Origin: a virus
Strand: one strand, 5' to 3'
DNA: 64,000 nucleotides
IMG/VR virus record: IMGVR_UViG_3300031555_001876
The notes under the pieces: model-generated
What the model was told of the DNA's origin: nothing
The model's input: the letters and a program-made list of their open reading frames with translations, nothing else
Database searches by the model: none
Shown: positions 18,826-18,900 of the stretch, one piece after another
Position numbering within the stretch: the first letter of the stretch is position 1
Layout of the letters: every line of letters begins with the position of its first letter
Position numbers and translations under genes: made by a program

Positions 18826-18900
18826 TGGGGAGTAGCATAGCGGCAAATGCTCTAGTCTCTAAAACTAGCGAAGTGGGGTCGGCACCCACCTCCCCCGCCA
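18826..18900 (+). tRNA. Amber suppressor tRNA, anticodon CUA (reads UAG), on a tRNA-Gln-like scaffold.
   Basis: Anticodon arm CTAGT-CTCTAAA-ACTAG with U33 and A37. D-arm GCAT-AGCGGCAA-ATGC. T-arm GTGGG-GTCGGCA-CCCAC. Acceptor TGGGGAG/CTCCCCC with U1 and discriminator G73 as in bacterial tRNA-Gln. Genomic CCA. Confidence 0.8.

Follow-up and report, generated by a model that had tools for sequence, protein, structure and literature searches.

Does a phage whose genes are interrupted by the amber codon TAG carry the tRNA that reads it, and, if so, which amino acid would that tRNA insert and when would it be made? This question is raised by a tRNA gene at positions 18826-18900 (+ strand) of a 64,000-nt stretch of viral DNA, here called the window, which is part of an uncultivated phage of ~185 kb using genetic code 15. 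A previous sequence-only reading described the locus as an amber suppressor tRNA derived from tRNA-Gln in an island of tRNA genes driven by early promoters. We conclude with high confidence that the gene encodes a functional amber suppressor in a phage that has recoded TAG (genetic code 15). The reading of TAG as glutamine (Gln), which would allow the TAG-bearing tail and lysis genes to be translated, is supported by comparison of the encoded proteins. The locus is a phage suppressor system of a known kind, with a related copy annotated in a published phage.

The tRNA gene and its fold

The gene consists of a 72-nt tRNA body followed by an encoded CCA. The sequence-only reading proposed ARAGORN and covariance-model tools as a check of the cloverleaf and of the CUA anticodon, and both are recovered at exactly 18826-18900. 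ARAGORN calls a 'tRNA-Pyl (cta)', a label that reflects the CUA anticodon only, and the Rfam model RF00005 aligns full-length (1-71/71), scoring 43.5 bits where the gathering threshold is 29 (E=6e-6, computed over all 64 kb of the window). The minimum free energy (MFE) fold is also a cloverleaf; the folding z-score of the tRNA by itself is not significant (-0.79), and insignificant z-scores are common for tRNAs.

In the acceptor stem, the 5' strand UGGGGAG, followed by U8 and A9, faces the 3' strand CUCCCCC, followed by G73 and the CCA that was rightly described as genomic. The D stem (GCAU/AUGC) closes an 8-nt D loop, AGCGGCAA, with G18 and G19. The anticodon arm given earlier as CTAGT-CTCTAAA-ACTAG, with U33, CUA and A37, is present in all its parts: a 5-bp stem (CUAGU/ACUAG) carries the loop C32 U33 C34 U35 A36 A37 A38 at 18857-18863, and the anticodon C34 U35 A36, which reads UAG and is flanked by U33 and A37, lies at 18859-18861 (+), where the sequence, the ARAGORN call and its invariance in the family described below agree. 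A variable loop of 4 nt leads to the T stem (GUGGG/CCCAC). The D and T stems are thus canonical as claimed, but the T loop GUCGGCA (G54, G58) is not of the UUCRAAU type and does not form the canonical T54-A58 pair; because of this loop, the Rfam score is at the low end of those of the island's six tRNAs. U1 and G73, noted as in bacterial tRNA-Gln, are likewise both in place, but the implied U1-A72 pair is not, since U1 stands opposite C72 in a U1*C72 mismatch that is flagged by cmscan.

A conserved family of phage CUA tRNAs

The suppressor is one of a conserved group of CUA tRNAs encoded by phages. This family comprises six distinct sequences from 19 loci and includes a gene annotated as "tRNA-Sup-CTA" in phage phAss-1. 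Mean column identity in the alignment of the six is 86%. Of the 21 helix pairs, 20 are formed in all six sequences and nine show compensatory double changes, while in slid-register controls pairing falls to 44-52%. The anticodon loop CUCUAAA is invariant, as are G73, G2-C71 and G10-C25, and position 3:70 is either G-C or A-U. Position 1:72 is unpaired in all six members, as U*C or, in one lineage, U*U, and this mismatch is confined to the family among the 141 distinct tRNAs of all fetched loci. The non-canonical T-loop bases 54 and 58 mark one sub-lineage. Membership of a conserved family with compensatory changes sets the suppressor tRNA gene beyond chance, and the restriction of the 1:72 mismatch to that family points to selection, not decay.

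Family members in IMG/VR came from looser tRNA patterns, a strict pattern giving no match there. The exact 25-nt 5' half of the suppressor had no match in 185,579 genomes, and therefore no donor or host tRNA is identified. Related phages carry their own tRNA-Gln(UUG) genes, which are dissimilar to the suppressor and have A1-U72. A metagenome scan returned a single partial relative, L083, situated at a contig end and sharing no proteins with the window. A search with the DUF6273 gene yielded 80 loci with ~40% domain-level similarity, and the 15 loci scanned contained no CUA tRNAs.

We tentatively consider it possible that selection has shaped the unpaired 1:72 position next to G73 as part of the design of a natural amber-suppressor scaffold, perhaps together with the T-loop bases 54 and 58. 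A pre-opened acceptor end could offset the lost G36 and permit efficient charging of a CUA tRNA by host GlnRS, or it could tune contacts with EF-Tu, peptidyl-tRNA hydrolase or amidotransferase and set the level of UAG read-through. By the established features of initiator tRNAs and published criteria (PMC6393288), an initiator-like role for the mismatch was rejected, as three G-C pairs are missing from the anticodon stem and C11-G24 is present in the D stem. Acceptor stems are not mentioned in the Borges, Peters and jumbo-phage papers, and the 1:72 feature is not raised in the available part of the phAss-1 paper (PMC10607447).

TAG as a glutamine codon

At least 49 in-frame TAGs occur in at least 24 of the 62 open reading frames (ORFs) of the window. 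The 62 ORFs end in TAA (48) or TGA (14) and none ends in TAG; one TAG in the RNA ligase gene, 7 codons from its end, could still terminate. When TAG is counted as sense, stop-to-stop ORF coverage rises from 83 to 93%. The codon is unevenly distributed. A tail/structural block at 506-17711 (+), tail-related by PHROG and Pfam, holds 16 in-frame TAGs (2.95 per 1000 codons), and a second structural block at 20966-30662 holds 15 (5.58 per 1000 codons); among its genes are those on the minus strand at 20966-24706 and one for a baseplate Gp10_C protein. Counting the enzyme genes scattered among them, the tail and lysis blocks reach 3-5.6 TAGs per 1000 codons, against zero in the gyrase/ligase block; the TAG-carrying enzyme genes include a methylase, PhoH and a radical-SAM protein. 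Among the lysis genes, the endolysin (55705-56490, +; PHROG endolysin families) contains two TAGs, and a small membrane protein from the ORF map (56487-56837, +), a putative holin by its hydrophobic segments only, contains one.

The amino acid is indicated by two genes from unrelated protein families, each with many homologs. The radical-SAM enzyme (50752-52056, +; Pfam), which by its sequence is of the Fer4_12 type with a Cys-rich C-terminal region, has five in-frame TAGs; in the alignment of 118 homologs, three of these columns carry Q in 115/118, 87/118 and 113/118 sequences, against a Q background of 3.8%, and the other two are variable and Lys-dominant (K in 78/118 and 71/118). A zinc-ribbon/DUF2726 endonuclease-like protein (35650-36402, +; Pfam; 84 homologs aligned) has four, of which one falls in the invariant EYDGEQH motif (Q in 84/84) and another on a column with Q in 62/84; the remaining two are variable (K 33/84, N 39/84). 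A database protein that is 97% identical to it, P0121, has Q at all four TAG sites. Codons other than TAG align with their standard amino acids, and sense-codon reassignment through the long-arm tRNA-Thr(UGU) of the island was rejected, ACA aligning with Thr. With CUA invariant in six co-varying homologs and at least 24 ORFs in need of TAG read-through, the designation as an amber suppressor is supported.

The phage has little presence in the databases. The radical-SAM gene is represented by P0002, a 100% identical fragment that begins after the last TAG, and a search with it returned two contigs of ~1.3 kb from the same phage. Exact look-up of two other window proteins in public protein databases found none. 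Against deposited phages, blastn and megablast with 4-kb and 25-kb pieces of the window gave tRNA-sized matches only, and the best identity of GyrA in tblastn against deposited phages was ~42%. Pfam and ORF scans detected no RF2, aminoacyl-tRNA synthetase (aaRS) or other code-switch gene in the 64-kb window.

Promoters and the tRNA island

The island is headed by a 56-nt promoter repeat at 17712-17767 (+; -35 at 17715-17720, -10 at 17738-17743), which immediately follows the stop codon ending the tail-fibre-like gene 15855-17711. A second, 89% identical copy of this direct repeat (D2) is the suppressor's proximal promoter, at 18693-18748 (+). Its -35 box TTGATT (18696-18701), 17-nt spacer of T/A runs, TG (18716-18717) and -10 box TATAAT (18719-18724) make an extended -10 promoter with 10/12 consensus matches. 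The tRNA begins 101 nt past this -10 box, giving a leader of ~95-100 nt. The suppressor had been placed between two promoter copies; both are in fact upstream of it, and the next promoter of the TTGATT-17-TGnTATAAT type is at 30713.

This sigma-70-type promoter is found in 12 intergenic copies, all on the + strand and mostly ahead of TAG-free genes of replication and metabolism (gyrase, DNA ligase, NAMPT/NAD metabolism, RNase H, nuclease), and the promoter scan found none in the TAG-rich structural blocks. The split between promoter and TAG is not absolute, as the 35650 gene with its four TAGs stands directly behind an early-type promoter. No conserved late-promoter motif was evident by eye in the intergenic regions upstream of TAG-rich genes. 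The view of the island as promoter-driven therefore holds, with TTGATT-17-TGnTATAAT directly upstream and the same type ahead of TAG-free genes; that expression is 'early' is what we infer from the promoter type and the genes associated with it.

The first tRNA of the island is an 85-nt tRNA-Thr(UGU) with an unusually long variable region (17795-17879, +; ARAGORN; Rfam 50.2 bits), followed by tRNA-Ser(UGA) (18289-18378, +; ARAGORN; Rfam 57.8 bits). Downstream of the suppressor come tRNA-Leu(UAA) (19052-19188, +; Rfam 42.1 bits with a 52-nt loop insertion), tRNA-Gly(UCC) (19195-19269, +; ARAGORN; Rfam 60.3 bits) and, as the last, tRNA-Lys(UUU) (19273-19349, +; ARAGORN; Rfam 72.5 bits). Parsing of the sequence shows tRNA-Leu(UAA) to be split between U34 and A35 by a tRNA-like insert of 49 nt (19086-19134); the homologous tRNA-Leu of L083 is uninterrupted. 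A group I intron was rejected for the insert, which is only 49 nt long and without a terminal G, and no Rfam match at E <= 0.05 was obtained for such an intron near the GIY-YIG gene or in tRNA-Leu. None of the ORFs within the island contains TAG. An SLH-domain gene adjoins the island and hints at a Firmicutes-type host.

Glutamine identity

Measured against the identity set of E. coli GlnRS (PMC9976931), the suppressor has U35 (18860), G73, G2-C71, G3-C70 and G10-C25; the identity element G36 is absent, A36 taking its place as in any amber suppressor. Amber suppressors made from several tRNAs are charged by GlnRS via U35 and the acceptor stem, and the weak U1-A72 pair is opened by GlnRS and read by amidotransferases (PMC9976931). 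An open 1:72 position is plausibly as good as or better than U1-A72 for GlnRS, while the departure of U1*C72 from U1-A72 makes charging with Gln less certain if the host is without GlnRS.

A search of 185,579 species genomes with the pattern of the 5' acceptor strand and D arm recovered six tRNAs, namely five tRNA-Gln and one tRNA-Trp. The best overall match, from a set biased by having been fetched with the same pattern, is a tRNA-Gln(CUG) at 72%, with the same acceptor stem except for A72. The phAss-1 Sup-CTA is typed as Gln by tRNAscan-SE, that report not stating which of its three copies is meant (PMC10607447). Of the claim that the suppressor is derived from tRNA-Gln, the Gln-type identity survives (Gln columns, U35, G73, acceptor pairs); descent as a recent copy of a host or phage tRNA-Gln does not. 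The suppressor should be read as having Gln-type identity within an old phage suppressor family.

Alternative explanations

Insertion of an amino acid other than Gln is improbable. It might be Trp or Lys through near-cognate synthetases, or Glu if a non-discriminating GluRS charged the tRNA and GatCAB rejected its U1*C72 acceptor end. The SLH-domain gene by the island hints at a host of the Firmicutes type, a group in which the indirect Gln pathway is common. The U1-A72 pair on which amidotransferases depend (PMC9976931) is missing here, and G73 is common to other bacterial tRNAs, the one tRNA-Trp among the six pattern matches having it too. Some TAG columns are K- or E-rich, but others, including the EYDGEQH motif, are 96-100% Gln, all four TAG sites are Gln in the 97%-identical homolog, and both the charging of amber suppressors by GlnRS through U35 and the acceptor stem (PMC9976931) and the Gln typing reported for phAss-1 Sup-CTA (PMC10607447) argue for Gln. 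A tRNA-Pyl, with TAG encoding Pyl, can be given next to no credence. It is suggested by the CUA anticodon with its ARAGORN label, by a radical-SAM gene in the window and by the Lys-dominant columns, and is effectively refuted by structure and Gln columns: two nucleotides separate the acceptor and D stems, the 8-nt D loop has G18 and G19, the anticodon stem is of 5 bp and the variable loop of 4 nt, none of them tRNA-Pyl hallmarks, and the conserved TAG columns are Gln, not Lys. No PylS- or PylBCD-like domains were found among the ORFs scanned, and the radical-SAM protein, read from its sequence as Fer4_12 type, has no PylB assignment.

That the gene is a decayed, non-functional relic, with read-through provided by another tRNA elsewhere or by a host factor, is very improbable. 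The low Rfam score, the T loop and the terminal mismatch would fit decay, yet distinct phages share these odd features even as compensatory substitutions alter the stems, the mismatch occurs only in the suppressor family among 141 distinct tRNAs, and the gene has its own promoter and encoded CCA. Suppressor tRNAs were found in only ~40% of TAG-recoded genomes (Borges et al., 10.1101/2021.08.26.457843) and phAss-1 has three Sup-CTA genes (PMC10607447), so that more copies may exist outside the window. A real suppressor that is not made early is unlikely. The promoter could be constitutive or of a middle class, or the tRNA could arise by read-through of the tail-gene transcript; there is no terminator between the tail-fibre gene 15855-17711 and the island, which lies within the structural region and on its strand, and TAGs occur in the methylase, PhoH and radical-SAM genes and in the 35650 gene directly behind the same promoter type. 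Without early expression, TAG recoding would be no timing device, and might instead be neutral codon capture or a barrier to expression in the wrong cell. Early expression is favoured by the near-consensus host-type promoter, which is absent from TAG-rich blocks and also precedes the gyrase, DNA ligase, NAMPT, RNase H and nuclease genes, by zero TAGs in the island ORFs and the gyrase/ligase block against 3-5.6 per 1000 codons in the tail and lysis blocks, and by the same pattern in other recoded phages (10.1101/2021.08.26.457843; PMC9523058).

Proposed mechanism

In the preferred reading, a functional Gln-inserting suppressor, host RNA polymerase with its primary sigma factor would initiate at TTGATT-17-TGnTATAAT ~100 nt upstream, and RNase P and 3' trimming would free the 75-nt tRNA with its encoded CCA. 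A host enzyme, most likely GlnRS, would then charge it with glutamine. This enzyme would read U35, G73, G2-C71, G3-C70 and G10 and must open position 1:72, which is already open here; the other possible route is charging by a non-discriminating GluRS followed by GatCAB. The charged tRNA would decode UAG in competition with release factor 1 and so allow full-length synthesis of tail, baseplate and endolysin proteins and several enzymes from genes with 1-6 in-frame TAGs. A possible regulatory purpose is that late and lysis genes would be untranslatable until the suppressor tRNA accumulates.

Significance

Stop-codon recoding is resolved here in good detail, in a large phage that is uncultivated and without a close deposited relative. 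As the suppressor is tied to a defined, repeated, host-type promoter, the idea that the switch comes first and the late genes after becomes directly testable; the lysis genes (endolysin, putative holin) would be TAG-gated in this phage too. Through the conserved 1:72 mismatch, one simple mutation (C72 to A) could serve to ask how phages get host synthetases to accept a suppressor, and such scaffolds could interest genetic-code engineers. Annotation of the contig must use translation table 15, databases holding at least one gene as a fragment (P0002).

Comparison with known systems

In a typical tRNA-Pyl the anticodon stem has 6 bp and the variable loop 3 nt, a single nucleotide separates the acceptor and D stems, and the D loop, of 5 nt, is without G18 and G19. 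The suppressor has only the CUA anticodon in common with it, the structural hallmarks being absent here. A nearer parallel is E. coli supE (glnV44), a chromosomal point mutant of tRNA-Gln in which G36 has become A36, giving an amber suppressor with the anticodon CUA; it keeps the U1-A72 pair and a canonical T loop. The phage suppressor, unlike supE, has a gene devoted to this role; its 1:72 mismatch is conserved, its variable loop is 4 nt long and its T loop reads GUCGGCA. The two share U1, G73, G2-C71, G3-C70, G10 and U35, a comparison made from general knowledge and the literature (PMC9976931) and not from an alignment.

That phages with suppressor tRNAs recode TAG to Gln is on record, with validation by proteomics (10.1101/2021.08.26.457843; PMC9523058; PMC10607447; PMC6784885). 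In crAss-like, Lak and other gut phages, as here, a phage CUA tRNA goes with TAG read as Gln, the likeness of the tRNAs being by description only, and structural and lysis genes are recoded while replication genes stay compatible with the standard code. In the model proposed for gut phages, standard-code genes and the code-switch machinery are expressed first (Borges et al., 10.1101/2021.08.26.457843; Devoto et al., 2019, PMC6784885; Peters et al., 2022, PMC9523058). The crAss-like and Lak phages infect Bacteroidota and Lak phages encode RF2, whereas the window is without RF2 or aaRS.

[quoted passage not shown] The two phages have no nucleotide similarity outside tRNAs. The phAss-1 gene has a canonical T loop, UUCGAUU, and the D loop AACGGCUA, both of which differ from those of the suppressor described here; it directly follows a tRNA-Leu and precedes a second, long-arm Sup-CTA, whereas the present gene has its own promoter copy. 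Across the full 75 nt the identity is 80%; the acceptor stem, including U1*C72 and G73, and the loop CUCUAAA are the same, the variable loop is of 4 nt, and the phAss-1 gene likewise lies in a tRNA cluster of a phage in which TAG is recoded to Gln.

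The suppressor tRNA gene and its family

At 18826-18900 (+), ARAGORN predicts a 75-nt tRNA with anticodon cta and an encoded CCA, which the Rfam tRNA model covers at full length (43.5 bits, threshold 29; E=6e-6 over the 64-kb window) and for which the cloverleaf is the minimum-free-energy fold. The CUA tRNA put forward in a sequence-only reading is thus recovered by both ARAGORN and cmscan, together with the anticodon arm described there (CUAGU/ACUAG stem, CUCUAAA loop with U33 and A37; anticodon C34 U35 A36 at 18859-18861) and the genomic CCA encoded 3' of the tRNA. Its account of the remaining arms needs amending: the D and T stems are both regular, but the T loop is GUCGGCA (G54, G58) rather than the usual UUCRAAU, and the supposedly tRNA-Gln-like acceptor end has U1 and G73, but with U1 unpaired and facing C72, a 1:72 position flagged as non-canonical by cmscan. 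The ARAGORN label 'tRNA-Pyl' reflects the anticodon and nothing more.

Among 50,697 deposited phage records, the closest relative of the window tRNA is found in phage phAss-1 (OQ749652), with 80% identity over all 75 nt, where it is annotated 'tRNA-TERM / tRNA-Sup-CTA'. Pattern scans of IMG/VR and JGI metagenomes revealed more copies on large phage contigs (28-221 kb), giving a Sup-CTA family of 19 loci and six distinct full-length sequences, plus one copy cut by a contig end. When these six sequences are aligned without gaps, 20 of the 21 cloverleaf pairs are standard in all of them and at nine pairs both partners have changed; in controls with the 3' partners shifted by 1-3 columns, pairing falls from 95% to 44-52%. 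All members share one anticodon loop. The T-loop oddity of GUCGGCA type is common to the window and three related loci (L083, L099, L100), AUCGACA occurs in L105-107, and the phAss-1 group has the canonical UUCGAUU. Membership of this conserved family shows, as judged from sequence comparison, that the window gene is under selection as a tRNA.

A second Sup-CTA of phAss-1 (L108 4079-4166), with a long variable arm, A1-U72 and G73, belongs to a different family from the first and may be Ser-like. Four-base anticodon tRNAs (ttgt, gtag) are reported by ARAGORN at L083 6017-6092 and L099 844-915, and a ROOL RNA (311 bits) lies within the L083 tRNA array (5217-5844).

TAG as a glutamine codon

Once TAG is read as sense, stop-to-stop ORF coverage of the window rises from 83% to 93%. 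The resulting map is compact, with 62 ORFs that all terminate in TAA or TGA and of which 59 lie on the + strand. The 49 in-frame TAGs are distributed over 24 ORFs (1-6 each), which include structural and lysis genes (tail and baseplate proteins, endolysin and an adjacent small membrane protein) as well as genes for a radical-SAM enzyme, PhoH, a DNA methylase, an RNA ligase and two homing-endonuclease-like genes. The public protein database has the radical-SAM gene only as the 255 residues that follow its last TAG (entry P0002, 100% identical). TAG density per 1000 codons is 2.95 in the tail block (1-17.7 kb), 5.58 in the structural block (20.7-30.7 kb), 1.09 in the promoter-rich enzyme block (30.7-48.8 kb) and 4.79 in the block ending in lysis genes (48.8-56.8 kb), and it is 0 both in the tRNA island with the SLH gene and in the gyrase/ligase block. 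Two fragments of the window phage, 99.9% identical, occur in other samples. In most of the Sup-CTA loci of other phages the coverage gain is greater with TAG than with TGA as sense, and phAss-1 is described as a code-15 phage in its publication (PMC10607447). The phage genome is predicted to need this suppressor tRNA.

When the radical-SAM protein is aligned with 118 full-length homologs (background Q 3.8%), the first, third and fourth of its five TAGs fall in Q columns (115/118, 87/118 and 113/118), the second in a column with K 78 and Q 9, and the fifth in one with K 71 and Q 5. In a zinc-ribbon/DUF2726 protein with 84 homologs, two of the four TAGs lie in Q columns, one of them invariant (84/84, EYDGEQH motif) and one with Q in 62/84, and the other two in variable columns; in the nearest homolog, of 97% identity, all four sites are Q. 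By these alignments TAG corresponds to glutamine, and it is the sole reassigned codon; as a control, five other codons match their standard amino acids (ACA=Thr, UUA=Leu, GGA=Gly, AAA=Lys, UCA=Ser).

Twelve of the 49 TAGs lie in the first 11% of their ORF, where about 5 are expected, and with this threshold, chosen post hoc, the counts give a hint of an N-terminal excess; such TAGs would leave unsuppressed products very short. Among glutamine codons, CAA outnumbers CAG (230 vs 28) in the three TAG-using blocks, with TAG (43) also above CAG, and the promoter-rich block (30663-48800) is the sole region with a CAG excess (96 vs 50 CAA).

A conserved 1:72 mismatch and charging identity

Only position 1:72 departs from standard pairing in the Sup-CTA family: five sequences have U*C there, the sixth has U*U, and none is paired. 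Among 141 distinct tRNAs in the loci compared, the mismatch is limited to these six sequences, being absent from all 131 non-CUA tRNAs and from the four other CUA tRNAs; tRNA-Gln(UUG) genes of related phages have A1-U72. The window tRNA carries U35, G73, G2-C71, G3-C70 and G10-C25, acceptor, core and central-anticodon elements that belong to the E. coli glutamine identity set together with G36 (PMC9976931), which is missing because the amber anticodon requires another base. With 18 bases specified, a pattern of its acceptor 5' strand and D arm was scanned in 185,579 species with one genome each and gave 15 matches, about 17 being expected by chance. Six of these fall on tRNA genes: five for tRNA-Gln with anticodon UUG or CUG, of which two are from Clostridia, and one for tRNA-Trp. 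All six bacterial tRNAs have A72. The phAss-1 Sup-CTA was typed as Gln by tRNAscan-SE according to its authors (PMC10607447).

Because the first base pair of tRNA-Gln must be opened by GlnRS, which also charges various tRNAs with a CUA anticodon (PMC9976931 and established knowledge), we infer that the conserved mismatch would aid charging by this enzyme. Charging with glutamine in a host without GlnRS is uncertain, because the amidotransferases of the indirect pathway read U1-A72 (PMC9976931).

Promoters and a possible order of expression

The suppressor had been placed between two copies of an early promoter; instead, both copies of this 56-nt repeat (17712-17767 and 18693-18748, +; 89% identical) lie upstream of it. 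The underlying motif, TTGATT-17 nt-TATAAT, has 12 copies in the window, all of them intergenic and on the + strand and most with TG extending the -10 box and a conserved spacer of a T run and an A run; two further variants were recognized by eye in intergenic sequence. These promoters precede the tRNA island (two copies), the genes for a vault-protein-like product, an IceA-like nuclease, NAMPT, phosphoesterase and kinase, GyrB and DNA ligase, and others. The next ORF is TAG-free behind 8 of the 10 copies that precede protein genes, the exceptions being the copy in front of the gene at 35650, which has four TAGs, and that at 38891, where the next long ORF is the RNA ligase (one TAG), 574 nt downstream and behind small TAG-free ORFs. 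No such promoter was found in the TAG-rich blocks of the window. The suppressor thus shares its promoter type with standard-code genes, which fits the published model that puts these genes and the code-switch machinery at the start of the order of expression (10.1101/2021.08.26.457843; PMC9523058). No terminator was found between the upstream tail gene and the tRNA island, and no RF2, aaRS or sigma factor among the window genes.

Interrupted tRNAs, minihelices and RNA repair

The other island tRNAs (UGU, UGA, UAA, UCC, UUU) all read A-ending codons. The tRNA-Leu(UAA) at 19052-19188 (+) has a 49-nt insert (19086-19134) between U34 and A35, which resembles a tRNA minihelix with an acceptor stem (6/7 pairs), a T-arm-like hairpin, discriminator A and CCA. 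Three more interrupted tRNAs occur in related phage arrays (L102 1752-1912, L102 3889-4021 and L099 6566-6711), their inserts having 7-bp acceptor stems (two perfect), T arms and CCA; all four are missed by ARAGORN. 'Enigmatic' tRNA introns, possibly tRNA-encoding, have been reported in Lak phages (PMC6784885) and jumbo phages (PMC13037316). Free-standing minihelices with an acceptor stem and T arm (loop UUCGAUU or UUCAAAU), lacking an anticodon arm, are found at 19365-19410 (+) and at L100 1548-1601, the latter scoring 43 bits with the Rfam tRNA model and ending in A-CCA. The 85-nt tRNA-Thr(UGU) at 17795-17879 (+), with a variable region of ~13 nt that is unusual for Thr, has the same acceptor stem as the interrupted tRNA-Leu and shares with it 16 nt, TTAAATATGCCGGTGT, made up of 8 nt of leader and the first 8 nt of the tRNA; it gives no sign of sense-codon reassignment, because ACA still aligns with Thr.

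An RNA-repair gene set, consisting of an RNA ligase (PHROG 968), a polynucleotide kinase (PHROG 505) and two metallophosphoesterases (one PHROG 547), is located at 39493-40788, 45736-46209, 44731-45459 and 46528-47241 (+). It could repair or splice tRNAs such as tRNA-Leu, or counter host anticodon nucleases. Speculatively, the insert might be excised by RNase P and 3' processing and the anticodon loop sealed by the phage RNA ligase.

Other window genes

Two neighbouring ORFs on the + strand, 506-3394 and 4419-7016, align with successive portions of a single PHROG (14959, 2494 positions) and appear to be pieces of a split tail gene (506-7016). The ~1-kb segment between them (3395-4418), with a GIY-YIG homing endonuclease gene containing three in-frame TAGs, resembles a mobile element inserted, in the manner of an intron, into a large tail gene; a group I intron was not detected in it by Rfam. 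At 34184-35497 (+), a TAG-free gene for an IceA-like endonuclease of the CATG-cutting type, immediately preceded by an early-type promoter, is followed by an N6/N4 DNA methylase gene with an in-frame TAG. CATG sites are nearly absent, numbering 12 in the 64 kb where about 198 would be expected, and seven of the 12 lie at 10.6-13.0 kb. This suggests a nuclease that degrades host DNA and to which the phage genome is intrinsically resistant. Also TAG-free are the genes for a protein that has the shoulder and repeat domains of the major vault protein (30777-33227, +), behind an early-type promoter, and for a DUF2828/DUF7788 protein (36450-38006, +), which is probably TROVE/Ro60-related; NAMPT, a macro-domain protein and NAD synthase are encoded nearby (41537-44621).

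Host and relation to known systems

Directly after the tRNA island, a TAG-free gene (19435-20733, +) encodes a secreted protein with two S-layer-homology domains; this gene, a hint about the cell envelope of the host, and the Clostridia host predicted for phAss-1 (PMC10607447) point to a possible Firmicutes host. No close relative of the window phage was found among deposited phages. In the phage recoding literature searched, acceptor stems are unmentioned and no description of the 1:72 mismatch was found; this family-specific mismatch, the sole element for which that is so, is a modest, testable lead. Phage CUA suppressors with TAG-to-Gln recoding of late genes are already well documented, and a homolog of the window tRNA is already annotated in GenBank.
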